From a virus (taxonomy: Duplodnaviria; Heunggongvirae; Uroviricota; Caudoviricetes), in IMG/VR virus record IMGVR_UViG_648276650_000010, positions 1 to 19,602 of that record: a stretch of 19,602 nucleotides of DNA, one strand, 5' to 3'. Below, piece by piece: positions 1 to 18,634 of the stretch (its first letter is position 1; every line of letters begins with the position of its first letter). The notes under the pieces were generated by a model. It saw only the letters and a list, made by a program, of their open reading frames with translations, was not told where the DNA came from and made no database searches. Position numbers and translations under genes: made by a program.

Positions 1-2400
1 TTACATCTTGCGTCTGTTGCTGTCTTGAACAATAGCCGCGATGTTCTGTTGCTGACGTTTTAATTGTTCAGCAAACCAACGCTGATCAGTAACATTCCCT
101 GAAACGTGAATACTTGCGTCGATTTTTGTTTCGCCTCCTGTTTTCTGATTATCTAAGAAGTCTTTCAAGTCGCCGTTTGTTCTTTCATCAACGACACGTT
201 CGCCACCATCAAGCAGCCATGTCCCTTCTCTTGGAACATTAGAAATACCATCGTGAGCCATACCAGTAAGATTCACTGATTTCATCTGCATGACTTGTCC
301 GATAACTCTTGCATAACTTGAAGCAGCCAGAGCGTAACCTAAAGGACCAGGATATTTTGCCATTGAAGCAGTTGCTGATTCATAAGCGTTTAACATACCG
401 CTTGCGATTGCTGTTCCTTTTTCAACTGCAAACATTGCTTGAGCAGCTTTAGAGTTTTCACCAGAAATACCGGCTATAACTGCACCCATACCAGAAGCAA
501 AACCGTTATACATCTGGAGTTTTGTCTGAATCTCAGTGAAAGTAATTGCTTTCGATTTAACCGCATAAGCTTGCTCAAGACGCTGTTTCTGTTTGAGATA
601 ATCTTCATAAGAAATCAATTGTCCGTCATATAGCTTTTGGTTCTGTTCTTGCATCTTCTGAAATTGTTCTTCCAACATTTTCTGTTGAATAGCCATTTTT
701 TCTTCATCAGTTGCAAAACCGATAGCATCAAGATTTTTAAGATTAGACATATTACCATCGCCAGCAGTCGCTTTAATTGCTTCAAGACGTTGCTGATGGT
801 CTTTCTGAATAGCTTCTAACTGAGAATTATATTCTTTCTGACCGATAAGCGATTGGGCTTTCTTAGCTTCGAGTTGTTCAAGTTGTTGTTGATATACGAT
901 TTCAAGACTCGACGTAATAGCACCGATTTCTTCAGGACTTGCCATAAGAGTTTGTTTGAATTCTTTGTTTGAATTCTCAAAAAGCATTTTACGACGTTGA
1001 TTTGCCTGTGTAGCGCTGATTATTCCTTTCTTTTCAAGTTCGTCGATTGTTTCAACAGCTTCTCTAACTTTACTGACTTGACTAGAAATAGTTCTGCCTT
1101 CTTGACTGAGAATTGCAGCATCAAGACTGGAAAGATTCTGTAACGCTGTCTGACGCTCTTGCATCATCTTATCATAAGCAGCTTTAGCTTCTCTTGCGGC
1201 TTGTTCCTGTAAGCGTTCCTTTTCTTTCTGAGCAGCTTTAGCTTCTCTTGCTATTTTGTCAGCTTCGCGTTTAGCTTTTTCAGCTTCTTTCTTAGCGTCT
1301 TCGGCAGCTAATGCATCTTTTTTTCTTTTCAGATCTGCGGCAGTTTTAGCATTTGCTTGCTGTAAACGAAGATTTTCATCAGCTTTGATTCTTGCTGCGG
1401 CAATATCTTTCTGAAACTTTTCTTCATCTGCAATTGCTTTTCTACGTTTAGCAAAACCCGCATTAGGCATCCATTCGCCCATTTTGTTAACAGTCGCTTC
1501 GGCAGCCCAATCAGAAAGAGCAGCATCAGGACGCAACGTGCTTAATGTTCCCATGAAGTCTAAAAAGTTACTTGCTGTCCAATCTTTATTAGCAATTTCG
1601 AACAGGTCGTTCATTTTCTTAACTAACGGACTCATAACGTTAACAGTTAGATTATCCAGATTGACGGTTAACGTTTTCATGTTTTCGTCGAATTCTTTAT
1701 ATTCTTTTGCTGTTTCGTTTGTGATATCAACAGAACGATTGTTAATAGCGTTTAATGCGTCTTGAGTTGAACCGTATTTTTCAAGAGTTGAAATCAAATG
1801 TGAAGCATCAGAAGCCATTGACTCCATTCCGTTCACGATTTCAGCTTGACTTGCACCAGCAGCTTTCAGGTCATAATAAGTCTGAACAAGCGCTTTAATA
1901 CCGCCTTGGGCATCGTTGACGTATTGTGTGTACTGTTCAAGACCAATACCCCATTCTTTGAGGTCGTCTGCAATACCGCCATGACCTTCTCTGAATGAAT
2001 CGCCAAGTTTATCTAATGTGTCTTTGTTTAAATCTCCGAAACGGTCAATCTCCATACCTGTTTCGCGAAATTCATTTTTAAGTTGTTGCAGATATTCAAC
2101 TGAAAGACCAGTTGATGTAGAGAGTTGATTGAGTTCTCTCGTTTTTTCTAACGCGGTATTAAGAACAGCTACACCTGCACCTGCTGCCATTCCTGCAATC
2201 CCCAGAGCTTGCATACCCTTGGACATTCCTGCAATACCTGAGATTCCGTTGTTGAGATTATTCAACGGTCCTGTCATATTACTAAAAAGTCCATTAGCTA
2301 CTGAATCGAGTTCATTCAGTTTCTTCATGGACTTGTCAATAGAAATTGATAGGCCTTTGTTATCTCCGTTAATCTCGACGTCATAACGTGATTTAGCCAT
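1..2400 (-). CDS. tail tape measure protein, 799 aa
   Basis: ATG at 2400-2398 preceded by a GGTG Shine-Dalgarno; stop TAA at 3-1. Protein is helical with an EAK/Q-rich low-complexity core and Gly/Ala-rich hydrophobic segments near both ends. Lies immediately downstream of the G/T chaperone pair and overlaps the T-frame stop by 8 nt. Assigned from composition and synteny. Confidence 0.75.
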   Translation of the reverse strand: MAKSRYDVEINGDNKGLSISIDKSMKKLNELDSVANGLFSNMTGPLNNLNNGISGIAGMSKGMQALGIAGMAAGAGVAVLNTALEKTRELNQLSTSTGLSVEYLQQLKNEFRETGMEIDRFGDLNKDTLDKLGDSFREGHGGIADDLKEWGIGLEQYTQYVNDAQGGIKALVQTYYDLKAAGASQAEIVNGMESMASDASHLISTLEKYGSTQDALNAINNRSVDITNETAKEYKEFDENMKTLTVNLDNLTVNVMSPLVKKMNDLFEIANKDWTASNFLDFMGTLSTLRPDAALSDWAAEATVNKMGEWMPNAGFAKRRKAIADEEKFQKDIAAARIKADENLRLQQANAKTAADLKRKKDALAAEDAKKEAEKAKREADKIAREAKAAQKEKERLQEQAAREAKAAYDKMMQERQTALQNLSSLDAAILSQEGRTISSQVSKVREAVETIDELEKKGIISATQANQRRKMLFENSNKEFKQTLMASPEEIGAITSSLEIVYQQQLEQLEAKKAQSLIGQKEYNSQLEAIQKDHQQRLEAIKATAGDGNMSNLKNLDAIGFATDEEKMAIQQKMLEEQFQKMQEQNQKLYDGQLISYEDYLKQKQRLEQAYAVKSKAITFTEIQTKLQMYNGFASGMGAVIAGISGENSKAAQAMFAVEKGTAIASGMLNAYESATASMAKYPGPLGYALAASSYARVIGQVMQMKSVNLTGMAHDGISNVPREGTWLLDGGERVVDERTNGDLKDFLDNQKTGGETKIDASIHVSGNVTDQRWFAEQLKRQQQNIAAIVQDSNRRKM
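1177..1251 (-). repeat. 21-nt exact direct repeat (agcagctttagcttctcttgc) at 1177-1197 and 1231-1251 inside the tape measure gene
   Basis: Read directly from the sequence. Copies are 54 nt apart (in frame) and encode the duplicated peptide AREAKAA within the EAK-rich region. Confidence 0.8.
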
Positions 2401-3099
2401 TATTCACCTTTTTTTGTTGTTTCAGTCTAACTTTGTCTAACAGAGCAGGGTCGAACATCGATTCAACAGCTTTCTTGCGTTTAAGCTCCTGTTGCTCTTT
2501 CTCTTTTTCGATTTCCTCTTGAGACTTAAACACAGAATCTTTAATAAGCAGGTGATCTTTCATGTTGAGCTTTTTCCTATATTCTTTTGTAAGATTAGGA
2601 TTATTAGCTTCGATAGTGTGGACCAAACGTGCTTGATAGAAATCGTTATAGACAGGACCTTGAGGTTCAATAAACGAGTCGAAAAACCATAGTTCGTAAT
2701 ACATCATCACGGACATCTGTTGAATTTCATCGTTAGATAATCCGCGACGTAGCATTGTTCTATACTGAAATGATTTAGCCCAGTTCTGTCTTAGTTCTTT
2801 TCCAGAACGTCTGATTTCTTACTGAGAATACTGGCAGTAGAAACAGCACTAGCAAGAGTTGAACGAACAGTGGTATAAAGTTTCTGAACTTGAGCGATTT
2901 CTTTAAAAACAGGAGTTCCGTCTTCGTGTTGAATACAATTCAGAATCATTCGGTCGTTACGTTCTTCTGTGTTTTCATTTTTGAAATAGAATTCACCGAA
3001 TTCAGATACGGTCATAGGACGAGCATAGAATTTAAAGCCGTTGATTTCTACTGGTTCGCGAGAAGGCGAAAGACTTGCTAACATTTCATCGAAATTCAT
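2393..3099 (-). CDS. predicted G-T fusion chaperone made by -1 programmed ribosomal frameshift
   Basis: The -1 frame is open from a TAA at 2821-2819 down to the stop at 2395-2393, overlapping the last ~8 codons of the G frame. The T-frame stop overlaps the tape measure start by 8 nt. The frameshift itself is inferred; the slippery site is non-canonical. Confidence 0.5.
2791..3099 (-). CDS. tail assembly chaperone, gpG-like, 102 aa
   Basis: ATG at 3099-3097 with an AAGGGA SD-like element; stop TAA at 2793-2791. Sits directly upstream of the tape measure gene, and a -1 frame ORF overlaps its 3' end (classic G/GT arrangement). N-terminal segment VEINGFKFYARPMTVSEFGEF resembles the lambda gpG N-terminus as I recall it. 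Confidence 0.65.
   Translation of the reverse strand: MNFDEMLASLSPSREPVEINGFKFYARPMTVSEFGEFYFKNENTEERNDRMILNCIQHEDGTPVFKEIAQVQKLYTTVRSTLASAVSTASILSKKSDVLEKN
2794..2821 (-). promoter_or_regulatory. candidate -1 frameshift window; best heptamer GGAAAAG at 2797-2803
   Basis: This is the only stretch where the G frame and the T frame are both open. Minus-strand sequence is AGT AAG AAA TCA GAC GTT CTG GAA AAG AAC TAA. It contains the A-AAG lysine slippery motif but not a canonical X-XXY-YYZ heptamer. Confidence 0.35.
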
Positions 3100-3133
3100 T
3101 TTTGTTTCCCTTTGTTGAGTTTTCTTTTATTTA

Positions 3134-3162
3134 TGAAAAAGGGAGCGCGAGGCTCCCTTTTG
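3134..3162 (-). terminator. intrinsic terminator (bidirectional-looking) after the 105-aa gene
   Basis: Stem GGGAGC (3141-3146) pairs with GCTCCC (3152-3157) around a 5-nt loop. Flanked by AAAAA (3136-3140) and TTTT (3158-3161), so it is followed by a U-tract on either strand. Located between the stop at 3163 and the G start at 3099. Confidence 0.65.
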
Positions 3163-3480
3163 TTATTTCCATTGAAAGAAATATCCGTACATTCTGAAAC
3201 CTTTGTGGATATATTCAATCATTCCTAAGTTCTTCGCTTCGGTCTCAAAAAATGGACCTTGCAGTCGAACTGTCTGTCCTAATTTGAAATGACAATTAGG
3301 TTTTTTCTTCTGTGTTGAAACAATAAAAACGTTCTTATCGTTGAACAGATATTTTTTAATTCGCTTATCTTTGATGTGTTCGCAACCGTAAGGAACAGTC
3401 ATTGACTCGGGATTAATCTCGTTAACGTAGATGTCGGCAAGTTCGTCTAATCTGTAAGTATCAAAATCGTGAATGTTCAT
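3163..3480 (-). CDS. hypothetical protein, 105 aa
   Basis: ATG at 3480-3478 with an AGGAGA SD; stop TAA at 3165-3163; followed by a terminator. No recognisable motif. Confidence 0.55.
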   Translation of the reverse strand: MNIHDFDTYRLDELADIYVNEINPESMTVPYGCEHIKDKRIKKYLFNDKNVFIVSTQKKKPNCHFKLGQTVRLQGPFFETEAKNLGMIEYIHKGFRMYGYFFQWK

Positions 3481-3497
3481 TTGTTCTCCTTTTGACT

Positions 3498-4040
3498 TTA
3501 TTTAGTACCCGCAACACGCTTAACGGTTTTGAATATATCGTCAGAGATTTGATTCCATGAACCCAGAGTTTTTCTTCTGTGTTGATTTTTCTTGAATACA
3601 GCAATTAAACGACGGTCTTGCTTTTTAACGTTAGTTTTAATGAGGATCGTTCGAGTTACGCCATCTTTTTTTTGCTTGACAGCTTCAAGATTATTTCTTG
3701 ATTTCAAGTTAGGAATGTTACCGAATTTGTTCTTTGAACCTCTTACACCAGTTGGAACAAACTTGTTAATTCCTTTGTTATCATCAATTAACGGAGCAAG
3801 ATAATCAGCCTGCTTGTCTTTGATGAATATTCTATTTCGTGACCCGTTCTGATCGTATCTGAAACTGAAACCTACTGCGTTCTTAGTGAAATTAACTGGT
3901 CCATCGACTCGTCTGTTGATTTTTCTTTGCAACTCAACAGAAGCGAGTTTAGACGCTTTGGTTACTTTCTTACTGAACACGTCAGATTCTTTGATTCGCC
4001 ATTTTTCAAGGTCTTTCATAACATCTTTTGCTTTTGCCAT
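3498..4040 (-). CDS. hypothetical strongly basic (Lys/Arg-rich) protein, 180 aa
   Basis: ATG at 4040-4038 overlaps the stop of the upstream 65-aa ORF (TAATG coupling). Composition suggests nucleic-acid binding; too basic to be a typical tail tube protein. Function unknown. Confidence 0.6.
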   Translation of the reverse strand: MAKAKDVMKDLEKWRIKESDVFSKKVTKASKLASVELQRKINRRVDGPVNFTKNAVGFSFRYDQNGSRNRIFIKDKQADYLAPLIDDNKGINKFVPTGVRGSKNKFGNIPNLKSRNNLEAVKQKKDGVTRTILIKTNVKKQDRRLIAVFKKNQHRRKTLGSWNQISDDIFKTVKRVAGTK

Positions 4041-4237
4041 TAGTTCACTCCTGACATCAGAAGCGTCCCAAATGTTTTTATCTGTTCTTCGCTGATAAGA
4101 ATCATTTTAGGTGCTTTAATATCGAAAGCTTGCAGAACAGGAACAGCAACAGTGTTATAAGTTATAGTAACGAGAAATAGAACAATAAGATAATCTTTAG
4201 CGTGTTTTGCCAATGCTTGGAGATATTTCATTTTCAT
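4040..4237 (-). CDS. small membrane protein, 65 aa, one predicted TM helix
   Basis: ATG at 4237-4235 with a GGTG SD 5 nt upstream. Hydrophobic segment YLIVLFLVTITYNTVAVPVL. Overlaps the 3' end of the endonuclease gene by 41 nt and is coupled to the downstream 180-aa gene. Confidence 0.45.
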   Translation of the reverse strand: MKMKYLQALAKHAKDYLIVLFLVTITYNTVAVPVLQAFDIKAPKMILISEEQIKTFGTLLMSGVN

Positions 4238-4673
4238 ATTTCACCTTTATTTGGTTTGAGTAGACTTTTTCAAGCTCCTTTTTCGTTTTAAGGTTTGAAC
4301 CTGTAATAGCTTTCATCTCAGAAAGATTTTTTCGAGAGAACGCCTTCTTTAAATCAGGAATAAGTTGTGGATGCGTAGGATTGTCTGAGTAGTCTTTTTC
4401 AAGATACTGAACAAGATTCTTCAAAAACTCGATGTAGTCAATTTTCCCATCGAGACCCGAACGTTTAAACTGATGTTTTATTCTGCCCTCTAGGACGTTT
4501 GCTTGAGCGATTAATAATCCTCTGCATCTGCCTGCGTTAGAGCCTGTTAATATATGGTCATGGTCAAGATGGGCTTTATTAACTTCATGAATCTTTATGC
4601 CAGTTAAAGCACAAAGACCTTTTTGCTTTTGAAAGAGTTCTTGCTTATAAATCGGAATCTCTTTTCTTTTCAT
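4197..4673 (-). CDS. T4 endonuclease VII (gp49)-like nuclease, 158 aa, with degenerate zinc-binding site
   Basis: ATG at 4673-4671 with a GAGG SD; ATGA overlap with the upstream 94-aa gene. The segment HLDHDHILTGSNAGRCRGLLIAQANVLEGRIKHQFKRSGLDGKIDYIEFLKNLVQYLEKDY aligns closely with my recollection of T4 endo VII (HLDHDHELNGPKAGKVRGLLCNLCNAAEGQMKHKFNRSGL...). The catalytic Asp/His/Asn/Glu positions appear retained, but three of the four Cys Zn ligands are replaced (by T, I, A). Confidence 0.8.
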   Translation of the reverse strand: MKRKEIPIYKQELFQKQKGLCALTGIKIHEVNKAHLDHDHILTGSNAGRCRGLLIAQANVLEGRIKHQFKRSGLDGKIDYIEFLKNLVQYLEKDYSDNPTHPQLIPDLKKAFSRKNLSEMKAITGSNLKTKKELEKVYSNQIKVKYENEISPSIGKTR

Positions 4674-4954
4674 TTTCCTCTTAGAACTGCTAGGTCGATA
4701 TCTAGCTTTGCTGTTCTTCCTTCTAAATTCTTCAAATCAGATTTGACCTCTCGAAATTCATCCTGTTGTCGTGTTATATCGCTTATAAGCGAAGCATCTT
4801 TTGCGTCATTAACGGCTATGCTTTTTTCGATGTCTGAGAAACGTTTCTCAAGGTCAATTCGTTTTTCATTGTTTGATTTAATTTCGGCATAAACCCAAGC
4901 CAAGAAACCTCCTAGAGCACCCAAGATGGAAATGATCAGTGCTATATCGACCAT
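4670..4954 (-). CDS. membrane-anchored coiled-coil protein, 94 aa
   Basis: ATG at 4954-4952 with two AAGGAG-type elements upstream. N-terminal hydrophobic helix (IALIISILGALGGFLAWVYA) followed by a charged heptad-like region. Function unknown; i-spanin-like or exclusion-like topology. Confidence 0.6.
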   Translation of the reverse strand: MVDIALIISILGALGGFLAWVYAEIKSNNEKRIDLEKRFSDIEKSIAVNDAKDASLISDITRQQDEFREVKSDLKNLEGRTAKLDIDLAVLRGK

Positions 4955-4999
4955 CTTGAATCTCCTTTTTAAAAGACCTCCTTGTCTTTATTTAGAACG

Positions 5000-7900
5000 T
5001 TATTGTTGTTTACTGATAAAGTAAACTGCTCTTGCTGCGGTCGCATGATTCAAGTCAGCACCGTAACTCAAATCAACAGCTTGTCCCGCATAGATAATGC
5101 CTGTACCACCGTTTGAACCACTCATTGCACTGGTAACTGTTCTTACGATTTCTTGACCGTTCGACATATTAATCCATGCAGTTCCGTAGCCCCAAGCACC
5201 ACCGGAATAAGTTCTGCCTGAAATCGAAAGGTTTGGAATAGAAATTACTCTGTTCCAGTTAACAGCAGGAATATGAACTGTTGTCCACGGATCTATATGA
5301 CCCATTTTGATAACGTCACCTTCAATTCTGTCAGCGTATACAGTTCCTGTGAAATAACCTGAACCGCCTCTGATTTCACCTGCGAAATAACCAGAATCTG
5401 CTTGAATGTTACCTCTGATATTAACGTTTTGGAAAGAAGCCCAACCGTCTTTTCTGATTGTCCAACCTTGAGTACCACCGGAAGGGAACCAGTTATCAGA
5501 AGATATTTCATAAGCAATCTGTGCTGAACCGATCTGAGCATTACCAATTTTCGCAGTAGTAATCGCACCGTTTTCAATCTTCGCGTTGTTAATAGCACCG
5601 TTTTGAATCTTAGCGTTGTTAATAGAAGCATCTGCAATCTGTGCTGAACCGATAGAAGCATTACGAATCATTGCAGAATCCATATAAACTCTGTTATCAG
5701 CGACCATAAACGGAGCAACAGCACCCGCAGGAGTATTGTTATTCGTTATAGCGATTTTATCAGCGTTAAAAACAATACTAGACTGTTTTGAACCGTCAGG
5801 ATTCTTATTAGCCAGCATACTGATACCAGCAACAACACCGTCGGCATTAGTCTGAACTGCCCATTTGCTATTAATCGTTCCTGTTAAGTCGTCAACGCTT
5901 GCTTTTGATTCTTGACTAACTGTTGCAATAGCTGTGTTTGTTTCAGCTTTCAATTGATTAATTGAACTTGCGGTTGCTTGTCTATCATCAGCTTGAGTTT
6001 TTTCAACTTTCGTAATAGCCGAGTTAAGTTTTCCATCAAAGTTAGATTCTTGAATACTGATAGCCTGATTGATAGCGCCATTAGTTTCATTAGTAATCTG
6101 AGTATGAAGTTCGGTGTTTTTCGTCGTGATAGTCTGATTTAATTCAGTAGTAACTTTTTGCTCGGATGCTGTAACTTTCGTATCAGTGTATTTGTTAGCG
6201 AGGTCTAATGCTTCATCGATAGCACCATCAACACGTTTATCCAAATCAAGCAAATCGTTTAACTGTTCTTTCATATCGTCAGTCCACGGAATATCCCATT
6301 TCATATCGATAAACTTCGATTCTGACCAAGTAATCTGGTCTTGTCCGAATACGTCATACCAAGCTGAACGAACATAGAATTGACCATCTTCTAATGGAAA
6401 ATTATCTAAGAACGGACTTGAACTTGAATAAACGTGAACAATTTCATTAAAACTCTGGTCTTTCGCAATATGAACGATTGTGCCTTTGAAGTCAGGAACT
6501 TCAGGCTTATTATCGCGTGGGTCATTCCAAGAGCACATCAGCATTCCAGGACCATTCGAAGCTGTGAAACCTTGAATAGCAGGAGCTTGATTGTTCTTAA
6601 CAGTAATAACAGCAGGATCTGACTTCATACCAGCGTGACCGTATGCAGTAACAGAAACTTTCAATTCACGACTCAGACCATTACCCAAGTTCATATTAAA
6701 GTCATATACAAAACCTAAGTCTTTAGTCTTGTAAATTACAGGACGCTGACCTTCAATTTTGATTTCGTAATATTGAAAAACTTCACCGAATGTCTGTAAC
6801 GTGTCGTCAACATAGAATTTCTGTGCGCTCTGGTCGTCCCAGGCGAATTCAAATTGAGTCTTGTTAGTGGTGTATTGATTTTCAACTGCGTTCACTAGGT
6901 GCAGTCCTGTAACGACTGGTAAGTTATACATAACCTCAGGGTTAACGTTATTGACATAAACCCAATCTGAACGATACACAACACCAGAAGCACAAACACG
7001 AATATCAAATTTCTGATTAGGGTCAAGACTCATAATCAAGAAATAATCGCCTGATGTGAAACCTGCTTGAATCCAAGAGTTCTTACCAGCAAGACTATAC
7101 TGAATATAATAACCTGCGCGATTATAATCAGGTTCAGACGTCCATTGAACTTTCAGAGTTCTTCCTAAAGCTGTTTCAGCAACTGCTTTAACTGTCAGAT
7201 TCTTAGGAGCAATCAGAACAGATTTATTAGGAATGTTGCTTCCTGTGTTATCAGGGTCTTTCGCGTAGTCAAGATTGGTATAAACTTCTTCGATATATTC
7301 AGAAGCAGTAATAGTAACGATACCAGCAGCACCTTTATTCATCGAACGATCGATATTAGTAATACGCCATAATGAATTCACAAGTTCCAGTTCAGAGAAA
7401 TTAACTCTGATAACATCCCAGACCTGTGCGGTATAAGCATCAGCAGTTGAAAAACTAATAACTTGCTTTAACAGAGATTTGTTACGTTCGATTGAAGCAA
7501 TTTTATCCAACTGAGATTTTGATTTCACGAATCTGTAACTGATATCTTTAGCGATAATACGTTTATCTTTCGCGATTGTTCCATCATTTGTTACGTCAGA
7601 CGGATAACGCAGAACTTGGTCAGAATAGTCAATCGACGGATCTTGATATTTCACGTTCAGAGTATTGTAATAATTCTCAGAACCGCCATCGTTTAAGCTA
7701 ACAGTACCAGCGTTAATATTATCTTCGTTGAAGTCATATTGAACAACATCAGGTCCATCGATTCTGCATGTTACTTTACCGAAAGTCTCTGTGATAATAC
7801 CGTTAAATGCACCTGCAAGCTGAGTTAAGTTTTCTTTGAATGAACCGTTCGGGTCAGTTGCACCATCAGAAAATAAACTGTTCAGTTTTGCATATCGAGC

Positions 7901-8689
7901 AGCTTCTTTAAAACTATCAAGGTCGATTTTATCAATCTGAATTCCAAGACCGTATCTATCATTTGTTAGATAATCAACAATCTGACTCGGACCGTTGTTC
8001 GAGGAAACGCGTTCTCCTGTGTTCAGATCTGTAATCAAACGTCCTCTAACGTCAACAGATACTTGACTGTTAGGTTGCAGGATATCAGCTTGGTTTTGAA
8101 GGTCTGAGTTACGTTTGCGCATAACAACACAACAAGCAGCGATGTTATTACCAGTAGCAGAATCAGGCCAGCCAGCATCTGAATTTCCTAGATATTTCTG
8201 AGCAAGAGTAAAAACGTGACCGTATGGCTTACCAGTTGAGAATTCAACTTCAACATATTGCTGATATTCAGCAGCGATTGAACCTTTCGGAAGAACACCG
8301 TCTTTATAAACGCCATCAAGTAAGATTTTCTGATTATCCATATAAAGGTTTTTGAAGCTATCAACTTCACCTTCACAGATTGCAAAGATCTGAACCAAAT
8401 ATGTCGTATCAACGCCAACAGCTTTCCAAACGTTAATCGTACCTGTACGCTGTTCACCATAGATAATAGGAATAACACTTGATGGATCTGACGTTGTTCC
8501 TAATGTCGTTGCTGTGTCTGTGCTGTTAAATCGGGGAACGTTCTGCGCCATCTGAGTTGACATCAAAGCAGAAACAGCAGCAACAGCGACACCAATACCA
8601 ATTGCCAAAGCAAGAGCAGCACCCGCAGCGTAAGCAGCAGCAGCCGCGGAAGCACCTGCGATAATTGCACCAATAGCTACAATAGCCAT
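5000..8689 (-). CDS. lambda J-like tail tip / host specificity protein, 1229 aa, with hydrophobic N-terminal extension
   Basis: ATG at 8689-8687 overlaps the upstream stop (TAATG). The region PIIYGEQRTGTINVWK...YLVQIFAICEGEV matches the conserved N-terminal motif of J-type tip proteins; the C-terminal region (FMVADNRVYMDSAMIRNASIG..., NIRGNIQADSGYFAGEIRGG...) resembles the lambda J C-terminal receptor-binding region as I recall it. Confidence 0.75.
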   Translation of the reverse strand: MAIVAIGAIIAGASAAAAAYAAGAALALAIGIGVAVAAVSALMSTQMAQNVPRFNSTDTATTLGTTSDPSSVIPIIYGEQRTGTINVWKAVGVDTTYLVQIFAICEGEVDSFKNLYMDNQKILLDGVYKDGVLPKGSIAAEYQQYVEVEFSTGKPYGHVFTLAQKYLGNSDAGWPDSATGNNIAACCVVMRKRNSDLQNQADILQPNSQVSVDVRGRLITDLNTGERVSSNNGPSQIVDYLTNDRYGLGIQIDKIDLDSFKEAARYAKLNSLFSDGATDPNGSFKENLTQLAGAFNGIITETFGKVTCRIDGPDVVQYDFNEDNINAGTVSLNDGGSENYYNTLNVKYQDPSIDYSDQVLRYPSDVTNDGTIAKDKRIIAKDISYRFVKSKSQLDKIASIERNKSLLKQVISFSTADAYTAQVWDVIRVNFSELELVNSLWRITNIDRSMNKGAAGIVTITASEYIEEVYTNLDYAKDPDNTGSNIPNKSVLIAPKNLTVKAVAETALGRTLKVQWTSEPDYNRAGYYIQYSLAGKNSWIQAGFTSGDYFLIMSLDPNQKFDIRVCASGVVYRSDWVYVNNVNPEVMYNLPVVTGLHLVNAVENQYTTNKTQFEFAWDDQSAQKFYVDDTLQTFGEVFQYYEIKIEGQRPVIYKTKDLGFVYDFNMNLGNGLSRELKVSVTAYGHAGMKSDPAVITVKNNQAPAIQGFTASNGPGMLMCSWNDPRDNKPEVPDFKGTIVHIAKDQSFNEIVHVYSSSSPFLDNFPLEDGQFYVRSAWYDVFGQDQITWSESKFIDMKWDIPWTDDMKEQLNDLLDLDKRVDGAIDEALDLANKYTDTKVTASEQKVTTELNQTITTKNTELHTQITNETNGAINQAISIQESNFDGKLNSAITKVEKTQADDRQATASSINQLKAETNTAIATVSQESKASVDDLTGTINSKWAVQTNADGVVAGISMLANKNPDGSKQSSIVFNADKIAITNNNTPAGAVAPFMVADNRVYMDSAMIRNASIGSAQIADASINNAKIQNGAINNAKIENGAITTAKIGNAQIGSAQIAYEISSDNWFPSGGTQGWTIRKDGWASFQNVNIRGNIQADSGYFAGEIRGGSGYFTGTVYADRIEGDVIKMGHIDPWTTVHIPAVNWNRVISIPNLSISGRTYSGGAWGYGTAWINMSNGQEIVRTVTSAMSGSNGGTGIIYAGQAVDLSYGADLNHATAARAVYFISKQQ
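5514..5653 (-). repeat. intragenic tandem and direct repeats in the J-like gene
   Basis: Exact 20-nt direct repeat gcaatctgtgctgaaccgat at 5514-5533 and 5634-5653 (120 nt apart, in frame), with 30-nt-period near-repeats at 5561-5620 between them. Encodes a periodic motif (IGSAQIA ... NNAKIQNGAINNAKIENGAITTAKIGNAQ). Confidence 0.8.
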
Positions 8690-9105
8690 TATTTTCTCCT
8701 GTTAAAAATTAATTCAAAATTAAAATCGTTGACGTTTATCAGTTGATATTTATTTTCATGTTCAACTAATGCTCTATTATTAAAAACGATAGATGCAACG
8801 TAATAGACACGGTTTTTATGTTTTTTCTTAATTAAGATAACCGAGCCTGTTTCTATAGTTTCTGATTTCTCAAGATGCGTTTCACACGCTTCGAGAACGT
8901 TATTAAAACCAGTTAGCTCTTTGCAAATCTTGAGACCTTCAGGAATACTCGTGTATTTGTCTTTTAATTTGTCTGTGTATTCAGTAGCACAAACAAGGTC
9001 GATATATTCAGCAACAAGGATATTACAGTCGTTTTGACCGAAAACGTGTTGCTGATTGATATAGCGGTTAAGTAATTTTGATAAGTCAGCTTGAAATTTA
9101 AACAT
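8689..9105 (-). CDS. hypothetical Cys/His-containing protein, 138 aa, translationally coupled to the J-like gene
   Basis: ATG at 9105-9103 with a GAGGTGA SD; stop overlaps the J start. Motif GQNDCNILVAEY plus downstream His residues could fit a papain-like fold (speculative). Position suggests a tail tip assembly role. Confidence 0.5.
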   Translation of the reverse strand: MFKFQADLSKLLNRYINQQHVFGQNDCNILVAEYIDLVCATEYTDKLKDKYTSIPEGLKICKELTGFNNVLEACETHLEKSETIETGSVILIKKKHKNRVYYVASIVFNNRALVEHENKYQLINVNDFNFELIFNRRK

Positions 9106-9132
9106 GTTTCACCTCTGACTTTATTTAGAGCC

Positions 9133-9161
9133 AAAAAAAGACCCCTTGCGGAGTCTTTTTA
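9133..9161 (-). terminator. intrinsic terminator after the 158-aa gene
   Basis: On the minus strand: GACUCC-GCAA-GGGGUC (6-bp stem with one U-G wobble, GNRA loop) followed by seven U. Stem at 9140-9155, A-run at 9133-9139 on plus. Begins 7 nt after the stop at 9163. Confidence 0.7.
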
Positions 9162-9162
9162 A

Positions 9163-9639
9163 TTAATCACTTGATGTCAAATCAACAACACCAGAAACAA
9201 CAGGACCACCATCAACACTCAGTGTCATTGTCAGACCTTGAACTTCTGATTCACCGCCATTATGAACAGCGCTTGACAAGAAGCCGTTATAAACTTTTGC
9301 AACACCCAGTTTTTTAGTAGCATCAATCCAATAAACGATTTTAAACTGACCACGTTTACCATCTTCCGCAAGCTTAATCAGAACATCATGAACGCTTTCT
9401 GGAATATAGTTAACGGTCAAGTCGATATCAGGAACAGAGCCACGACCAACCAGTTTACGGGAGTATTTGTGAGAGAAGTTAGGAGCTGTAATAACTTCGC
9501 GTTCAATACCCGTAGAAGGGAATGCACCAGTTTCAGGAATTTCAACAAACTTTTCTGAATTCAGATCGGTGTTTGCAATTTCTGAGTTATAGAACACACT
9601 GACGTAAGAGCCAGCAAAAATATCAAATTTGTCTGCCAT
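9163..9639 (-). CDS. hypothetical acidic beta-rich protein, 158 aa, probable virion structural protein
   Basis: ATG at 9639-9637 with an AGGAAA SD; stop TAA at 9165-9163. No TM segment or signal peptide. Bracketed by terminator-like hairpins on both sides (stand-alone transcription unit). Fold and function not assignable from sequence alone. Confidence 0.55.
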   Translation of the reverse strand: MADKFDIFAGSYVSVFYNSEIANTDLNSEKFVEIPETGAFPSTGIEREVITAPNFSHKYSRKLVGRGSVPDIDLTVNYIPESVHDVLIKLAEDGKRGQFKIVYWIDATKKLGVAKVYNGFLSSAVHNGGESEVQGLTMTLSVDGGPVVSGVVDLTSSD

Positions 9640-9680
9640 TTTTAATTTCCTATTTGAGTTAATATAGTTTATTTAGCAAA

Positions 9681-9699
9681 GGGGATTTCTCCCCTTTTT
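9681..9699. terminator. terminator-like hairpin directly after the tail fiber stop
   Basis: GGGGA (9681-9685) pairs with TCCCC (9690-9694) around a 4-nt loop. On plus it is followed by TTTTT (9695-9699); on the minus strand only by UUU, so minus-strand termination is probably partial. Confidence 0.5.
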
Positions 9700-9700
9700 G

Positions 9701-12700
9701 TTATTTAGCTTCAAGTTCTTTAACGCGAGCACTTAATTCCTTGATAGCATTAACCAGCAACGCGTTTACAGCAGCAGAGTTAACACCAAGAATTTCGTCA
9801 GGTCCGAAAGAACTAACAGCTTCTGGTAATACTTCTTTCAGTTCTTGAGCAATAATACCTGCTTCACGAACTTCGAATGAATATTCAGTTTTGACTAAAT
9901 CAGATTTCTTATCGTATACGTAACCAGTAAGTTTCTCGACTTTATCAACTGCGTTTTCAATTTCTTCAAAGTTCGATTTCAGACGTTTATCAGAAGTGCT
10001 AACCCATTGGATCGCATTTGCTGTTCCATTACCGAGGAATAGATAGTCTGCACCACCAATGTGAAGTGCAGCCTCGGGAGCAGAACTACCCGGATTATAA
10101 ATGTCCATCGCAGCACCGTATTCTGTGCCCCAATGAACATGTTTCCAGATATTAATACATTTATCACGAGTCTGAGCTTCAACAATCATTCCCGCAGGAC
10201 GATCACGCCACGCTGACCACTGCGGCCAACCGTCAACGACACCTTGAATCATCGCATTGCTTGCCCCGGTTCTAACGTTTCCAACATAAACACCGCGAGA
10301 CTCATTATGGGTGTTAATCGTAATTGACCGATCAATTGTCAAACCAGCTGTGTTAAAGGTTGCGATTTGAATACCATTAGTAAAAATGCTTAAGTTTCCG
10401 TCCGTAACTTGTCGAATACCTGTATCGTTATCACCAAACGCGATTGAGTTTCCACCTAGTACGTTGTCCGTGTTAATACCAAAACTTGTTAAACGATTTG
10501 TTTCAACAGAAGGAGTATTAATTTTTCCAGGAACAGCAAAACGACCATCGATATCAAATTCATAATTAGCCATTTTACCGAACGTCGATTCTTCTTTCGT
10601 CCCAACACGAAGAATTCCTTTGCCCCATGAATTAGCTGGTCCTCTAATAGTTCCTAATTCAACAACAGTAGAGAATCCGTGTCCTACGGAAACAGAGTTC
10701 ATCGAATATCCGGGATAATAATCACTTTCACCAGCAACTGCTCCGAAGTTAATCTGCATAGGAGCATTTTGTCTCCATTGATTAGCGTAAGCATGATCAT
10801 TGGTTGCTGCCCATCTTGCACCATCAATTTGAATTGTATTATGCTGAATATCCATCGCGGTATTAGTACCAGTCTGAACCGTCACGGATCCGTTAGTTCT
10901 AAGAGTAACACCAGATGACGTAGAGAAATCATTTCTCATATTCTGAGACCAGACAATATCGAGATTCTCACTTGTCTTGCCAAGAATCCAGGTATTATTG
11001 CGACCGTCCATATTGCCAGACATATAACTTGCCTGATTCGACGCAGGAATATTCAACTGAATAGCATTAGATTCGCCGTTGACAGAAACACCACTTGCAA
11101 GATTCAATCGACCATTGGTGTTTAATGAACCCATCCAATATTCAGGAGTATCACCATGAAACCAACATATAGAGTTATCCAGCCTATCGTCAGGATGATT
11201 AGCCATTGCCAACTCATGATAAATGGATCCAGCACCAACGGCTCTAACTTTTCTTAAATGATTTGATTGTTGCTCAGGAGTGTTCCAGTCGGGTAAGCTT
11301 TCCGAGTCATACCATCCGTAAGGCTTATTATTATAAATCGTTTTATAGAAACTTGCAGGGCCAGCAACACCAAGACCTTCTTTAGTATCAATATAAGTTC
11401 TGCCTGAACCTCTCAGATAATGATTATATTTTCCACCATTAACTAATCCGAAATAAGTCGTGGCGTCACCAATGTTATTACCGTCGGTTGTCGTATCGAT
11501 ATTAATTAATGAATAACCTTCAGGAGCCATCAGATTCGAATCACCATCATCACTTCTGAAACGGAAATGAGTTTTTCTATTAAAGTAGTTTTCAGATCCT
11601 GCAATAGAAGCTGTTACAACGTTATTTGAATAGAAGTTTAACCATCCGTCTTCTCTCCATTTAAAACCAGTGTCGGAATCACCAATCGCGATAGAGTTTA
11701 AACCCAGTGAATTTCCAACGGCAAAGTTGCTTGCAACGGACATTAAAGGAGTTGTTACTGCATCAGTGATTCTAGCTTGACCTGAAATATCAATTGACAT
11801 TCCTCTGCCTGTTTTTCCCCAAGTCATGGTCATTAGATCTAATGCGTCGGTTCCTTCGTTAGCATCACGACGAAATAACAGTCGATCATCCGTATCCGTT
11901 GCGTATGCAATTTGATGAATAGTCTTTGAAGTTCTGCCGTGGTTTTCAATACTCAGAACATCACCGTTATTACCAGCAGGTGTAACTTTCAAAGTTCCTG
12001 CGTATACATTACCAGCAGCATGAACAGAAGGAACAGTTAAGTCGCCAGTCATCGTGTCGCCAGCTTTATTAACTTTGGTGTCAATCATGTCTTTCAGAGT
12101 CTGATTATCAACAGTCAAACGGTCATTAACTGCTTTAATCTTTTCGTCAGCATCAGCTTTATTCGCATCAACTTTCGTATTAATAGCCGTGTCGTTCTGG
12201 TCAACTTTTGAATTCAGATTATCAACGCGAGTGTTAATAGCAGCGTCGTTAGCATCAACTTTCTGTTCGAGTTTCGTCAGGTCAGCACTTGAACCTGTTT
12301 GAACTTTGCTGATTTCAGAATCAACGTAATCTTTACGCGTAGCGCTATCAGGAGCAACAGGAGCAGCAGGCAAAGATAACTGACCATTACCGTTAAGCAC
12401 GAAGTCAGAACTCTCTCCTGTACCTTTTCCTTTCGCTACCGTAACACGAAGTTCACCTTTAGAGTCTGTCTGAGCAGGAGAACTAATACGTGCTTTTGCT
12501 TTGTCGTGTTCATCAGCAAAAACAATATCGCTTTTATCAAGATTTTTTAAAGTCAGATTAGAATCGGATTCAATATCACTTGCTTTAATTTTTCCAGTAA
12601 AGGTCTGACCGCCTTCAACAACAGCATCAGCACCATTACCGATGTTAATAACAGCGTCACCGAATTTAGTAAAAATCTTTTTATCGGCTAAGTTAATAGC

Positions 12701-12784
12701 GATTTCACCATCAAGCATGTTTTTCGCTTCTGGCTTTCTTCCGGCGACGTCTGTTCTATAATGTTTAACTTTATTATTTGCCAT
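9701..12784 (-). CDS. tail fiber protein, 1027 aa, with C-terminal intramolecular chaperone (peptidase S74-type) domain
   Basis: ATG at 12784-12782. N-terminal fibrous repeats (VDxNDxAINTxVD) and a DTMTGDLTV motif typical of phage fibers. C-terminal WVSTS-DKRLKSNFEEIE...YVYDKK...EAGIIAQELKEVLPEAV...NAIKELSARVKELE matches the auto-cleaving chaperone domain seen in endosialidase-type tailspikes and L-shaped fibers. Confidence 0.8.
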   Translation of the reverse strand: MANNKVKHYRTDVAGRKPEAKNMLDGEIAINLADKKIFTKFGDAVINIGNGADAVVEGGQTFTGKIKASDIESDSNLTLKNLDKSDIVFADEHDKAKARISSPAQTDSKGELRVTVAKGKGTGESSDFVLNGNGQLSLPAAPVAPDSATRKDYVDSEISKVQTGSSADLTKLEQKVDANDAAINTRVDNLNSKVDQNDTAINTKVDANKADADEKIKAVNDRLTVDNQTLKDMIDTKVNKAGDTMTGDLTVPSVHAAGNVYAGTLKVTPAGNNGDVLSIENHGRTSKTIHQIAYATDTDDRLLFRRDANEGTDALDLMTMTWGKTGRGMSIDISGQARITDAVTTPLMSVASNFAVGNSLGLNSIAIGDSDTGFKWREDGWLNFYSNNVVTASIAGSENYFNRKTHFRFRSDDGDSNLMAPEGYSLINIDTTTDGNNIGDATTYFGLVNGGKYNHYLRGSGRTYIDTKEGLGVAGPASFYKTIYNNKPYGWYDSESLPDWNTPEQQSNHLRKVRAVGAGSIYHELAMANHPDDRLDNSICWFHGDTPEYWMGSLNTNGRLNLASGVSVNGESNAIQLNIPASNQASYMSGNMDGRNNTWILGKTSENLDIVWSQNMRNDFSTSSGVTLRTNGSVTVQTGTNTAMDIQHNTIQIDGARWAATNDHAYANQWRQNAPMQINFGAVAGESDYYPGYSMNSVSVGHGFSTVVELGTIRGPANSWGKGILRVGTKEESTFGKMANYEFDIDGRFAVPGKINTPSVETNRLTSFGINTDNVLGGNSIAFGDNDTGIRQVTDGNLSIFTNGIQIATFNTAGLTIDRSITINTHNESRGVYVGNVRTGASNAMIQGVVDGWPQWSAWRDRPAGMIVEAQTRDKCINIWKHVHWGTEYGAAMDIYNPGSSAPEAALHIGGADYLFLGNGTANAIQWVSTSDKRLKSNFEEIENAVDKVEKLTGYVYDKKSDLVKTEYSFEVREAGIIAQELKEVLPEAVSSFGPDEILGVNSAAVNALLVNAIKELSARVKELEAK

Positions 12785-12796
12785 TTTCTTTATCCG

Positions 12797-13822
12797 TTAA
12801 AATACTCCTGCGTCTAAGGTTTCTCCTAACGCTACACAATTAATCTCTAATGGCGTTGGTTTATTACTTGGAGAATAGACTTCTTTGCCTTTGACCTTGA
12901 CAGAAGTTGAGTTAATTTCATTACTATTTAGAGCCAAGATTTCACCTTGTGGCGCAGAAATCTTTTTACGAACGTTCAGATATTCCTGAATAGTCAAAGA
13001 TCCTTTGAGTTCTCCACCAGTAATAGGCAAAGCATTAATATCTTCAGGAGTTGGACGTTCAAGTTCTGTATAGACTTTGACCCACGGAGATTCAGTAACA
13101 GTTTCACCGCTTTGTTGTTTGTTTCTGATTCTGATGCTTGGATTACCGACTGACGAACCAATAAGCTCCCAACCTTGACCATCAGGATGCTGAATAGCCA
13201 TAGCAGACGTGCCAGAGTTATAAGGGTTATCGCTGTTTGTTGCATCGACTGTTACACATCTGTTACCAGTTAATAATCCTAAGTCTTTAACGCCTGCGAT
13301 TTCTTCTGTACCAGCACCAATACCATAATCGCCAACGTTTAACGGAACTGAGAATTCAGCAAAACCTGTAAACAACTGACCATCAGGAGAAAGATTAAAA
13401 GTTGTTGTAACGACTGAGTTAGCCGAACCTGATGTTTCTTTCTTCGTTACATAAGCATTAAAAATATGATAAAGACCAGCATCATTATCTTTCTTTGTTT
13501 CTCCATCGATAACATAAAGACTTCTGAATCTAAGGAGTTTCTTTTCCATAAGAGCTTCATCAAGCAACTGATAAACTGGGTCAGAACTGTCTTCAAATAA
13601 GCTTATTGAAGTGTCGTTAATTGTTACGTCACCTGAAAGTTTCGTTGTGAAATCGGTTCTGTAATCTTCTAGTGTCTGAACTTCTTTTCTAAATCCGATA
13701 ACAGGGAATGCAGCCAGTTTATCAGTGCTTACATAACCTGGGTCGTTATATCCTGGGATTTCAACGATTAGCGGATTAACTGAAACTCTGACGTTATTTC
13801 CTACAAAAATATCGTTTGTCAT
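12797..13822 (-). CDS. major tail protein, gpV-like, with C-terminal Ig-like extension, 341 aa
   Basis: ATG at 13822-13820; stop TAA at 12799-12797. Position is right after the gpU-like gene. The segment NDTSISLFEDSSDPVYQLLDEA...LLRFRSLYVIDG resembles the lambda V pattern [23 protein letters not shown]...AYKIRFPNG as I recall it; C-terminal ~100 aa is beta-rich and Ig-like. Confidence 0.6.
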   Translation of the reverse strand: MTNDIFVGNNVRVSVNPLIVEIPGYNDPGYVSTDKLAAFPVIGFRKEVQTLEDYRTDFTTKLSGDVTINDTSISLFEDSSDPVYQLLDEALMEKKLLRFRSLYVIDGETKKDNDAGLYHIFNAYVTKKETSGSANSVVTTTFNLSPDGQLFTGFAEFSVPLNVGDYGIGAGTEEIAGVKDLGLLTGNRCVTVDATNSDNPYNSGTSAMAIQHPDGQGWELIGSSVGNPSIRIRNKQQSGETVTESPWVKVYTELERPTPEDINALPITGGELKGSLTIQEYLNVRKKISAPQGEILALNSNEINSTSVKVKGKEVYSPSNKPTPLEINCVALGETLDAGVF

Positions 13823-13829
13823 TTTAGTC

Positions 13830-14228
13830 TCACATTAAGTATTCGAAAGTTAAAATTATTTGTGCGCTAACATGACCATTTGATGCTTCACTATCATAAT
13901 CAGTGAAGCTCGAACTTGGATAAATCTTATCGATTTTAAATGGGATAAGTTTTTCATGATTAGCTTTAATAGAAATTAAGTCGTAAACGGCTTTGTGAAC
14001 GCCTGTTTCGCTTTTCTCTGAGAAAATATCAATCGTAATACTAAGAACACTTGCAAGTTTCGATTGCAAACCGATTCGCGTATATTCTTCTGTCATTCCT
14101 GGAATCATTACTTGAACAGGTTCTTTAACACCAGTTGTGAAAGCGTTTTTGACGTATTTCAGATTAAGTTCTTTAACGATTATTTCTTCCAGAGCGCGTT
14201 TAATTCCTAAACGTGGCAGATTAGTCAT
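13830..14228 (-). CDS. tail terminator protein, gpU-like, 133 aa
   Basis: I place the start at the internal ATG at 14228-14226, which overlaps the upstream stop by 8 nt; the ORF-track start at 14306 would overlap the upstream gene by 86 nt. C-terminus DYDSEASNGHVSAQIILTFEYLM resembles the lambda gpU C-terminus (DY..DDAG..SADLTYVITYEM) as recalled. Confidence 0.6.
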   Translation of the reverse strand: MTNLPRLGIKRALEEIIVKELNLKYVKNAFTTGVKEPVQVMIPGMTEEYTRIGLQSKLASVLSITIDIFSEKSETGVHKAVYDLISIKANHEKLIPFKIDKIYPSSSFTDYDSEASNGHVSAQIILTFEYLM

Positions 14229-14517
14229 AGAATGATGTCTCCTGTTCGCCTTTAAATGCCAGATAACAATTAGCAAGTCCTGAACCATCATTAACAAGAT
14301 ACGCAATGGTATACAGAATCTCGTTTAATAGAACTTCATCTTCTTGCTTAACTTTATTGATATCAGCGGTTATATAGATTGTCTCGCTTACTTGTCCGTT
14401 ATCGTTGTTAATCTCAATTTCAACAATACCGAGTTCATCAGAATCGTTAATTTTGATTTTCTGTCCGAAACGAGTTAAGAAAGACTGTTTTTGTTTTTCT
14501 GAATATGGAAAAATCAT
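14221..14517 (-). CDS. head-tail joining (neck) protein, 98 aa
   Basis: ATG at 14517-14515 with an AAGGAGA SD; first gene after the capsid terminator. Small and acidic, in the position of a head completion/connector protein. No specific family assignable. Confidence 0.5.
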   Translation of the reverse strand: MIFPYSEKQKQSFLTRFGQKIKINDSDELGIVEIEINNDNGQVSETIYITADINKVKQEDEVLLNEILYTIAYLVNDGSGLANCYLAFKGEQETSFYD

Positions 14518-14552
14518 GTTGTCTCCTTTTTATTATATTTAGTCCAGAAACG

Positions 14553-14576
14553 AAAAAAGGACTCCCGAAGGAGTCC
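14553..14576 (-). terminator. strong intrinsic terminator after the major capsid gene
   Basis: On the minus strand: GGACUCC-UUCG-GGAGUCC (perfect 7-bp stem, UUCG tetraloop; stem 14559-14576) followed by UUUUUU (14553-14558 on plus). Lies about 50 nt downstream of the capsid stop. Confidence 0.85.
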
Positions 14577-14597
14577 TCTGATTATTCAGCAGTTTCA

Positions 14598-14627
14598 GCT
14601 TTCGCTTTCGCTTTTGCTTTTGCTTTT
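14598..14627. repeat. five tandem hexamers (GCTTTC x2, GCTTTT x3 on plus; AAAAGC/GAAAGC on the mRNA) immediately 3' of the capsid stop
   Basis: Read directly from the sequence. Starts 1 nt after the stop codon (14629-14631) and ends before the terminator hairpin. Confidence 0.8.
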
Positions 14628-14628
14628 C

Positions 14629-16533: not shown

Positions 16534-16548
16534 TACCAGTCCTCTGTT

Positions 16549-16580
16549 GGAGCGTCTTTCGACGCTCTTTGTTTTTCTGA
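16549..16580. promoter_or_regulatory. stable stem-loop in the portal-capsid intergenic region, terminator-like only in plus orientation
   Basis: GAGCGTC (16550-16556), loop TTTC, GACGCTC (16561-16567), followed on plus by TTTGTTTTT. On the minus-strand mRNA it forms a GAAA-loop hairpin 17 nt upstream of the capsid SD with no U-tract after it. Confidence 0.45.
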
Positions 16581-16592
16581 ATGTATTTAGTG

Positions 16593-18143: not shown

Positions 18144-18634
18144 GATGGATTCGTGAACCTCGCTTTAATAGTAACAATCGGAGATTTACCGTTTGCCATT
18201 TGTTCTGACTTAATCAGATTTGCTAAGTTAGCTAAAAGTCGTTTTCGAGCCATAAGCAGCGAATCAAGCGTTTCATAAACGAATGATTTACCGTTAATAC
18301 TCATTTGTTGAATAGCTTCTTCGTTACTTGTCAGACGATACTGAATAACTGTATCGATATCGTTAATCATTTCTCTGAGTTGTTCTCTTTTCGTTTTTGA
18401 AACGAATGGTGATTTCACTTTGATAATGCTGTTACTGATAAGCGCACCTTCATAGAGAACAACAACAGAAAAAGTTCCTTCGATAAAATCTGATGTGTCC
18501 ACCGAGATATTCGCTGGACAATCAGTTTGAGAAAACAATTTAGTTTCAGTTGAGCCTATGGAGACTGTTGCACCTTCAGGATTATAAACAGCGAGTTTTT
18601 CACCGATGTAAATTTCTGAATTTGATTTTTGCAT
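18140..18634 (-). CDS. gpW-like head-tail joining protein with ~85-aa N-terminal extension, 164 aa
   Basis: ATG at 18634-18632 with a GGAGAA SD; lies between terminase and portal as lambda W does. The C-terminal ~75 aa (INGKSFVYETLDSLLMARKRLLANLANL...) resemble lambda gpW ([23 protein letters not shown]...) as recalled. The N-terminal beta-rich half has no counterpart in 68-aa gpW. Confidence 0.55.
   Translation of the reverse strand: MQKSNSEIYIGEKLAVYNPEGATVSIGSTETKLFSQTDCPANISVDTSDFIEGTFSVVVLYEGALISNSIIKVKSPFVSKTKREQLREMINDIDTVIQYRLTSNEEAIQQMSINGKSFVYETLDSLLMARKRLLANLANLIKSEQMANGKSPIVTIKARFTNPS

Follow-up and report, generated by a model that had tools for sequence, protein, structure and literature searches.

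Phage 80alpha's tail completion protein (TCP) sits in the neck, and lambda gpZ follows the same plan as the 80alpha TCP structure, with an extra beta domain (PMC11661146). In contrast, phage T5 is reported to carry its TCP (p143) at the tail tip, on the side (10.1101/2024.10.16.618446). The present work concerns a putative gene of this type and its neighbours in a 19,602-nucleotide stretch of viral DNA (IMG/VR record IMGVR_UViG_648276650_000010, positions 1 to 19,602; hereafter the window, meaning the whole stretch). There, downstream of a gene for a J-like tail tip protein, five tightly packed minus-strand genes at 3163-4954 encode proteins of 94, 158, 65, 180 and 105 amino acids (aa). The original prediction, made from the sequence alone, took them for a non-canonical accessory cassette and for a candidate undescribed system. 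We conclude that the 180-aa product is probably a divergent TCP of the lambda gpZ type, a family assignment made by homology and by the modelled fold. The region as a whole is probably the last stretch of the late transcript of a temperate siphovirus, where unrelated late functions are juxtaposed, and not one system. The features of the block, in the order of transcription, are listed below.

4670-4954, minus strand: TMCC, 94 aa, with an N-terminal hydrophobic segment (residues 1-25) followed by heptad-rich sequence
4197-4673, minus strand: endonuclease VII, 158 aa, with PF02945 and homology to T4 gp49
4040-4237, minus strand: TM65, 65 aa, with one hydrophobic segment (residues 16-37)
3498-4040, minus strand: TCP180, 180 aa, isoelectric point (pI) 10.7, net charge +28
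3163-3480, minus strand: p105, 105 aa, modelled as a small split beta-barrel
3134-3162, minus strand: intrinsic-terminator-like hairpin 3' of p105, -14.8 kcal/mol, z = -3.5

All five gene calls of the original prediction were confirmed as open reading frames (ORFs) on the minus strand. Its description of the products as membrane, coiled-coil and basic proteins also stood, given the hydrophobic segments of the 94- and 65-aa proteins, the heptads of the former and the pI of the 180-aa protein. The TMCC gene starts 45 nucleotides (nt) after the J stop codon, behind a GGAGG-type ribosome-binding site, and overlaps the nuclease gene by 4 nt (ATGA). The nuclease gene then overlaps the TM65 gene by 41 nt, the TM65 and TCP180 genes share 1 nt (TAATG), and a 17-nt spacer carrying AAGGAG leads from TCP180 to p105. 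Directly 3' of the p105 stop codon, at 3137-3161, the hairpin GGGAGC-CUCGC-GCUCCC is followed by UUUUUCAU, with a U-run past the stem. None of 200 shuffles folded as stably, so that the predicted intrinsic terminator was upheld. No sigma-70-like promoter was found on the minus strand between 2300 and 5300, the inside of the block included, which argues for co-transcription of the block with the late virion genes. Each of the five ORFs has orthologs in other genera, and the ratio of nonsynonymous to synonymous substitution rates (dN/dS) against two relatives is 0-0.25 for all five genes wherever dS could be estimated; in the comparison with the Enterobacter locus, dS was saturated for p105 and TMCC. 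Judged from their sequences, the five ORFs exceed chance and all five are under purifying selection. A search of the window against Rfam gave no match, and neither did a megablast of the region against GenBank phages; with distant blastn and tblastn searches, phage DCP80 was the sole GenBank phage relative.

The gene order was compared across 25 loci, that is the window and 24 related loci, several of them near-duplicates (phage DCP80, Enterobacter and Proteus prophage or metagenome loci, IMG/VR and Logan contigs; locus numbers carry the prefix L). These relatives come from several enterobacterial genera and reach down to about 30-50% identity. Homologs of TCP180 and p105 also occur in genomes of Klebsiella, Citrobacter, Salmonella, Serratia, Pantoea, Edwardsiella and Providencia. 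The p105 gene adjoins the TCP gene in 25 of 25 loci, and a small transmembrane (TM) gene lies upstream of the TCP gene in every locus where one is detectable. The TMCC gene is found 3' of J in all loci containing the J 3' end, with the exception of L032, for which tblastn gave no TMCC match. Phage DCP80 and the enterobacterial loci, those of Enterobacter and Proteus among them, thus have the order J-TMCC-(endoVII)-TM-TCP-p105 in common. Endonuclease VII is the sole variable member, missing from six loci (L006, L007, L012, L013, L017 and L036) and on the opposite strand in two (L032 and L034). In these last two, a TM-TCP-p105-lysozyme unit is convergent to the genes ending in J. In L034 (6465-8382), the overlapping or abutting genes TM-TCP-p105-T4-type lysozyme form an operon of their own; TMCC remains 3' of J on the other strand, and the endonuclease VII gene is upstream on the opposite strand.

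Loci of the ancestral type carry a canonical series of tube, G, T, tape measure, distal tail protein, hub, DUF6950 and J genes, and their block leads directly into an endolysin gene (M15 or T4-type), then an integrase and host DNA. The feature next to p105 on its 3' side varies as follows.

Endolysin (M15 peptidase or T4-type lysozyme): 10 loci
Chaperone and tape measure genes (E. coli/Enterobacter lineage): 11 loci
Serine integrase: 3 loci
Contig end: 1 locus

The four non-nuclease genes are conserved as well as J and the tape measure protein or better. The conservation of TCP180 ranks with that of the tail tube, above J and the tape measure protein, as seen in the percent identities between the window and four relatives.

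TCP180: 74, 53, 49, 46
Tail tube: 77, 57, 55, 57
J: 62, 46, 41, 42
Tape measure: 56, 37, 33, 33

Synteny and purifying selection together indicate a core block and not an accessory cassette, the four non-nuclease genes being kept in order after J in the relatives. The block resembles an insert in the tail module because the chaperone and tape measure genes have been relocated behind it in the E. coli/Enterobacter lineage. Other insertions at junctions were observed in relatives: a NUMOD3 homing endonuclease gene lies between the hub and DUF6950 genes (L013:2410-3183), and a 237-aa ORF separates p105 from the endolysin gene in L017 (9447-10160). The gene junctions of the module appear to be insertion hot spots. 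As for DCP80 (L001, PQ671644.1), it is filed under Straboviridae and carries the T4 genes motA and ndd plus the siphovirus-type module; the record may be a mosaic or a chimeric assembly, and its TMCC and TM genes are unannotated.

The assignment of TCP180 rests on its family and on its model. The protein matches phrog_1924 ('minor tail protein') at 1.5e-4, and 28 of its 34 close homologs match the same family, at best with 7e-10. A profile search of 1.84 billion representatives retrieved 185 relatives. Among 45 remote ones, 30 match phrog_1924 (best 1.9e-51), nine match phrog_27, labelled 'tail completion or Neck1 protein', and five match PF06763 Minor_tail_Z (best 1.5e-4). The AlphaFold model (pLDDT 80) combines a beta domain with a long helix at the N-terminus and another helix at the C-terminus, and the TCP fold was recognised in it; this architecture matches that described for gpZ-type TCPs (PMC11661146). 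The basic charge of TCP180 fits a protein that would contact DNA and the tape measure protein, by analogy with 80alpha.

Two points weigh against this assignment. TCP180 itself has no match in Pfam at E<0.1, Minor_tail_Z included, and its link to the gpZ family is transitive through the remote relatives, not direct. In addition, its gene is 3' of J in all 25 loci and not between the head-completion and the tail-terminator or tube genes. With hhalign, the wide family profile (A3) aligns end-to-end with lambda Z, at a marginal level (E 0.0066, 166 columns, probability 5.8%), and the close-homolog profile (A2) gave no match to lambda Z; no match was found to T5 p143, T5 p142, lambda U or FII either. 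Profile searches with TCP180 and p105 against PDB sequences returned only noise, and Foldseek against BFVD gave no match at E<=0.001.

Translated directly after TCP180 in every case, p105 is for this reason guessed to be a virion or tail-assembly partner. Its family is confined to this prophage group, and its model is a confident small split beta-barrel. Two points count against the guess: the fold is generic, with PilZ domains scoring highest, and no profile link to lambda U, FII or T5 p142 was found. The c-di-GMP motifs RxxxR and (D/N)xSxxG are absent among the conserved positions of 34 p105 homologs.

The endonuclease VII call of the original prediction held. The 158-aa protein matches PF02945 (Endonuclease_7) with 41.6 bits for a cut-off of 23.6, and phrog_423 at 4e-36. 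Against PDB 1e7d (T4 gp49), the E value is 2e-27, residues 10-122 being colinear with residues 12-126, and identity to T-even gp49 proteins is 45-53%. The residues of the HLDHDH...N..E signature, which we take to be catalytic in T4 endonuclease VII, are identical to those of 1e7d in the HMMER alignment and invariant among three orthologs. The match to the C-terminal dimerisation domain PF09124 is weak, with 18.1 bits (E 0.0031) for a cut-off of 22. By homology, the protein is a genuine relative of T4 gp49. Three of the four zinc cysteines are replaced (C21-A-L-T and I-A-Q-A in place of T4 C-L-I-C and C-N-L-C). The Enterobacter copy has lost the same cysteines, and the DCP80 and L034 copies keep all four (CxxC...CxxC). 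This loss speaks against the proposed role, since the activity of the window nuclease is not assured. The dN/dS of the nuclease gene is 0.02-0.13. Moreover, relatives carry the T4-type recombination genes UvsW and UvsY, which makes branch trimming before packaging plausible as the role of the nuclease, by analogy with T4.

The two membrane proteins raise the question of lysis. TM65 is predicted to cross the membrane once, with a basic N-terminus, N-in and C-out. Its orthologs, present in all lineages, share invariant K14, N28, P33 and P43, and its dN/dS is 0.2-0.25. The gene is unannotated in RefSeq NZ_CP146665.1 (gap between V9Z46_RS15505 and RS15500). TMCC matches phrog_1009, of function not known (1.3e-7). 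Weak matches of its orthologs to Rz-like spanin PHROGs range from 1.5e-6 (Enterobacter copy) to 0.04, the window copy having none. TMCC has a dN/dS of 0.17 and evolves fast (median identity 23%). Between loci with 71% identity at the J C-terminus, the identity of TMCC is only 24-31%. TMCC thus shows no co-variation with the receptor-binding end of J, which argues against its being a chaperone or an exclusion protein specific for the receptor.

TMCC and TM65 are the only small membrane proteins among the real genes of the prophage of about 34 kb to which the window belongs. The lysozyme of this prophage, whose best PHROG match is the tail-lysozyme family phrog_430, has neither a signal sequence nor a signal-arrest-release (SAR) sequence, so that host lysis by this phage, if it occurs, would require a holin. 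A coupled unit, TM-TCP-p105, starts with TM65 and ends in an endolysin gene in most lineages; in 10 relatives, the endolysin gene is two genes 3' of the TM gene, within the same coupled unit. In the window prophage, the endolysin gene is not adjacent to the block but some 30 kb distant, at the opposite end of the prophage. Elimination and gene context favour TM65 as the holin, with TMCC as a membrane-anchored accessory, a reading about as likely to be right as wrong. The points on the other side are of several kinds. TM65 has no family match in Pfam, PHROGs, NCBIfam or PADLOC; as regards holin families, the first three gave none for its orthologs either, and only coiled-coil noise for TMCC. 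Two non-lysis genes stand between TM65 and the endolysin. No ORF of at least 20 aa with the lipobox of an o-spanin was found in any frame of the block coding strand, in the window and four relatives. Finally, the split terminase large subunit (TerL), the lack of visible replication genes and a possible defectiveness of the prophage weaken the argument that a holin must be there.

Taken together, these data suggest the following course of events. TCP180, a basic low-copy protein, would be added at the end of tail assembly and would be needed for productive head-tail joining and DNA delivery, as expected from its family. The lineage-specific small beta-barrel p105 may be its partner in the virion or in tail assembly. 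TM65 would act as a single-pass holin releasing a soluble T4-type or M15 endolysin, and TMCC as a membrane-anchored coiled-coil accessory, either antiholin-like or i-spanin-like. The nuclease would have been acquired by some lineages, inserted between TMCC and TM65, and, if it acts as in T4, would trim branched replication or recombination intermediates before packaging. The chaperone and tape measure genes would have moved behind the block in the E. coli/Enterobacter lineage.

Among other explanations, the original prediction had named as one possibility a nuclease module at the membrane, serving superinfection exclusion or anti-defence; defence is considered with it here. Two membrane proteins do flank a structure-specific nuclease, with translational coupling of the genes; exclusion genes typically adjoin the receptor-binding gene, as this block does; and genes of defence type, for a TIR protein and a retron-type reverse transcriptase, lie elsewhere in this prophage. 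We nevertheless regard such a module as very improbable, since the nuclease is no obligate partner of the other proteins, whose four genes are retained both in the 6 loci that lack it and in the 2 where it is inverted. In addition, PADLOC gave no significant match for the five proteins, its sole entries being two weak matches of HNH type for the nuclease (E 0.005 and 0.03). The block has no internal promoter and would be transcribed along with the late virion genes, TCP180 is assigned to a family of structural proteins, and TMCC does not vary with the receptor-binding end of J. A candidate undescribed system thus gives way to a gpZ-type structural protein in a conserved gene order. The statement that no motif was recognised no longer holds for the 180-aa protein; it still applies to the 94-, 65- and 105-aa proteins, which have no characterised homologs. 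Two observations that the original prediction had named as telling against it, structural homology and conservation of the block in relatives, were both largely made, the homology for the 180-aa protein only. Small inner-membrane exclusion genes downstream of tail-tip genes are known, for example HK97 gp15 and T5 llp. TMCC, TM65 or both could likewise be morons expressed from the prophage, such as blockers of DNA entry, located at the end of the tail operon with no link to lysis. Their position, the very fast evolution of TMCC and the absence of a holin family match for either protein agree with this. However, orthologs of both occur in every lineage, which sets them apart from typical morons. 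Neither has its own promoter, both are coupled to late genes in translation and they are the sole holin candidates of the element, so that we judge morons quite improbable here. The nuclease alone could be a selfish insertion of the homing type, of no use to the phage and perhaps in decay. This would explain a gene-sized presence/absence polymorphism placed precisely at a gene junction, the NUMOD3 gene and the 237-aa ORF at neighbouring junctions and the loss of three of the four zinc ligands. Against it, the full-length gp49 architecture and the HLDHDH...N..E residues are kept, purifying selection is strong and UvsW and UvsY in relatives fit a branch-resolving role; a homing origin is therefore unlikely.

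A further alternative keeps the genes within the virion. TM65, TCP180, p105 and the muralytic enzyme could form a virion-associated unit for envelope penetration or ejection, with the gpZ-type protein at the tip and not in the neck; the membrane proteins would aid channel formation or tip assembly. Indeed, an invariant coupled TM-TCP-p105-lysin series adjoins the tip gene and forms its own operon in L034, the lysozyme falls closest to a tail-lysozyme family, the J N-terminus has a 48-residue hydrophobic segment, and the tail tip of T5 is reported to bear the TCP on its side (10.1101/2024.10.16.618446). On the other hand, the 80alpha TCP is in the neck (PMC11661146). The element has no other endolysin, so that the lysin is needed for lysis; M15 and T4-type enzymes interchange, which is typical of endolysins; and small membrane proteins lack support as virion components. 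We consider this unit improbable. It is rather doubtful, too, that the coupled TM/gpZ-family/p105/muralytic unit is a functional module acting at the tip or envelope, and/or that TM65 and TMCC are a new spanin-less pair of holin and accessory. The preferred reading therefore stays that of juxtaposed late functions at the end of a siphovirus transcript.

With 100% identity, the window region matches a prophage in the chromosome of E. coli MS 115-1, and this prophage region is present in 7 of 5426 complete E. coli genomes. The prophage occupies a host site between ybiT and ldtB. Its end coincides with the stop codon of the tape measure gene, at window position 1, and adjoins host ldtB. The Enterobacter prophage has an identical layout, adjoining an ldt gene at the equivalent host site. 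The minus strand carries all the long ORFs of the window. Read in the order of transcription, they are a terminase large-subunit C-terminal fragment, a head-tail joining protein, portal, a protease-capsid fusion and two small proteins, then a 341-aa tube-like protein, a 1027-aa fibre, a 158-aa tail tube, DUF6950 and the 1229-aa J-like tip protein. After J come the five block genes, the hairpin terminator and the genes of the tail assembly chaperone and of the tape measure protein, with a T-like ORF between these two. The neighbours of the block are located as follows.

5000-8689, minus strand: J-like tail tip protein, 1229 aa; phrog_31 (5.7e-61), Pfam Phage_Tail_Tip in orthologs
2791-3099, minus strand: tail assembly chaperone; phrog_344
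2393-2755, minus strand: T-like ORF
1-2400, minus strand: tape measure protein; phrog_13674 (4e-70)

At its N-terminus (window 8546-8689), the J-like protein has a hydrophobic Ala/Gly-rich stretch of about 48 residues, unusual among J-type tip proteins and kept in relatives. Two proteins with tail-tube-like domains are encoded, of 158 aa (9163-9639) and 341 aa (12797-13822). The former is the conserved tube, found upstream of G/T in relatives; the latter, followed by the 1027-aa fibre gene, may be a collar or a fibre-anchoring ring. Where the chaperone gene ends, around 2795-2815, the T-like frame (-1) runs on without a stop over 8 codons. GGAAAAG within this overlap may be a frameshift site of the G/T type; lambda has GGGAAAG instead.

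At the far prophage end are a serine recombinase, the T4-type lysozyme, a TIR-domain gene, the small terminase and a retron-type reverse transcriptase. Beside the serine recombinase, this end also carries, on the opposite strand, the genes of a DUF2163 hub protein and of the distal tail protein (L010:15118-19289). TerL is split by an IS3 element, window positions 18655-19554 holding its C-terminal fragment only, and no replication or immunity genes were recognisable in the prophage (L010:15118-30501, L005:17702-39464). The prophage may thus be defective or domesticated. An initial identification as the '34-kb retron-Ec67 element' was dropped, and only the PGAP label 'retron Ec67 family' (reverse transcriptase/endonuclease) was kept. 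The classical Ec67 retron resides in a 186-like prophage (PMC7826664).

The main value of these results is negative: an apparent mystery system in a tail module would come down to core late genes plus one mobile nuclease gene. Residual novelty is in the position and coupling of the TCP gene, in the membrane pair with p105 and in the zinc-less endonuclease VII. An enterobacterial prophage lineage would encode its gpZ-type TCP after the tip gene, coupled to lysis genes, and this position bears on the disagreement over the location of TCPs in the virion, neck for 80alpha and tip for T5. In this phage group, the only candidates for a holin are two small membrane proteins that are unannotated or uncharacterised. 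Finally, strong purifying selection acts on an endonuclease VII even though its zinc site is lost.

Compared with known systems, p105 differs from PilZ domains by lacking RxxxR and (D/N)xSxxG, and from the beta-barrels of phage tubes and stoppers by lacking a sequence link to lambda FII, lambda U or T5 p142. TMCC and TM65 resemble holins or antiholins and Rz-type i-spanins (lambda S and Rz, T4 T) in being small late membrane proteins that share an operon with the endolysin in relatives. As in class III holins, TM65 has one transmembrane domain, predicted N-in and C-out; as in i-spanins, TMCC has an N-terminal transmembrane domain and a coiled coil. Unlike holins and spanins, the two belong to no such family, have no lipoprotein o-spanin partner and are followed by a tail gene and p105 before the endolysin.

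The nuclease is close to T4 endonuclease VII (gp49; PDB 1e7d, 1en7, 2qnc) in length (158 vs. 157 aa), is colinear with it over about 115 residues at about 45% identity, and keeps the HLDHDH motif and the downstream N..E; its match to the T4 dimerisation domain is weak and below the cut-off. In contrast to T4 gp49, it lacks three of the four zinc-ligand cysteines and belongs to the late operon of a temperate siphovirus, where it is optional among relatives. TCP180 is best compared with lambda gpZ (PF06763), HK97 gp10, SPP1 gp16.1 and 80alpha gp51 (PDB 9mu2 chain P). It shares with gpZ-type TCPs a length of about 180-190 aa, a strongly basic character, a helix-beta-helix architecture and a single-copy late gene. 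It also has remote links through PHROG 1924, PHROG 27 and Minor_tail_Z and is conserved like the tube protein. Its sequence similarity to lambda gpZ is marginal and, unlike the genes of other gpZ-type TCPs, its gene follows J, coupled to the gene of a small membrane protein and, in most relatives, to that of the endolysin.

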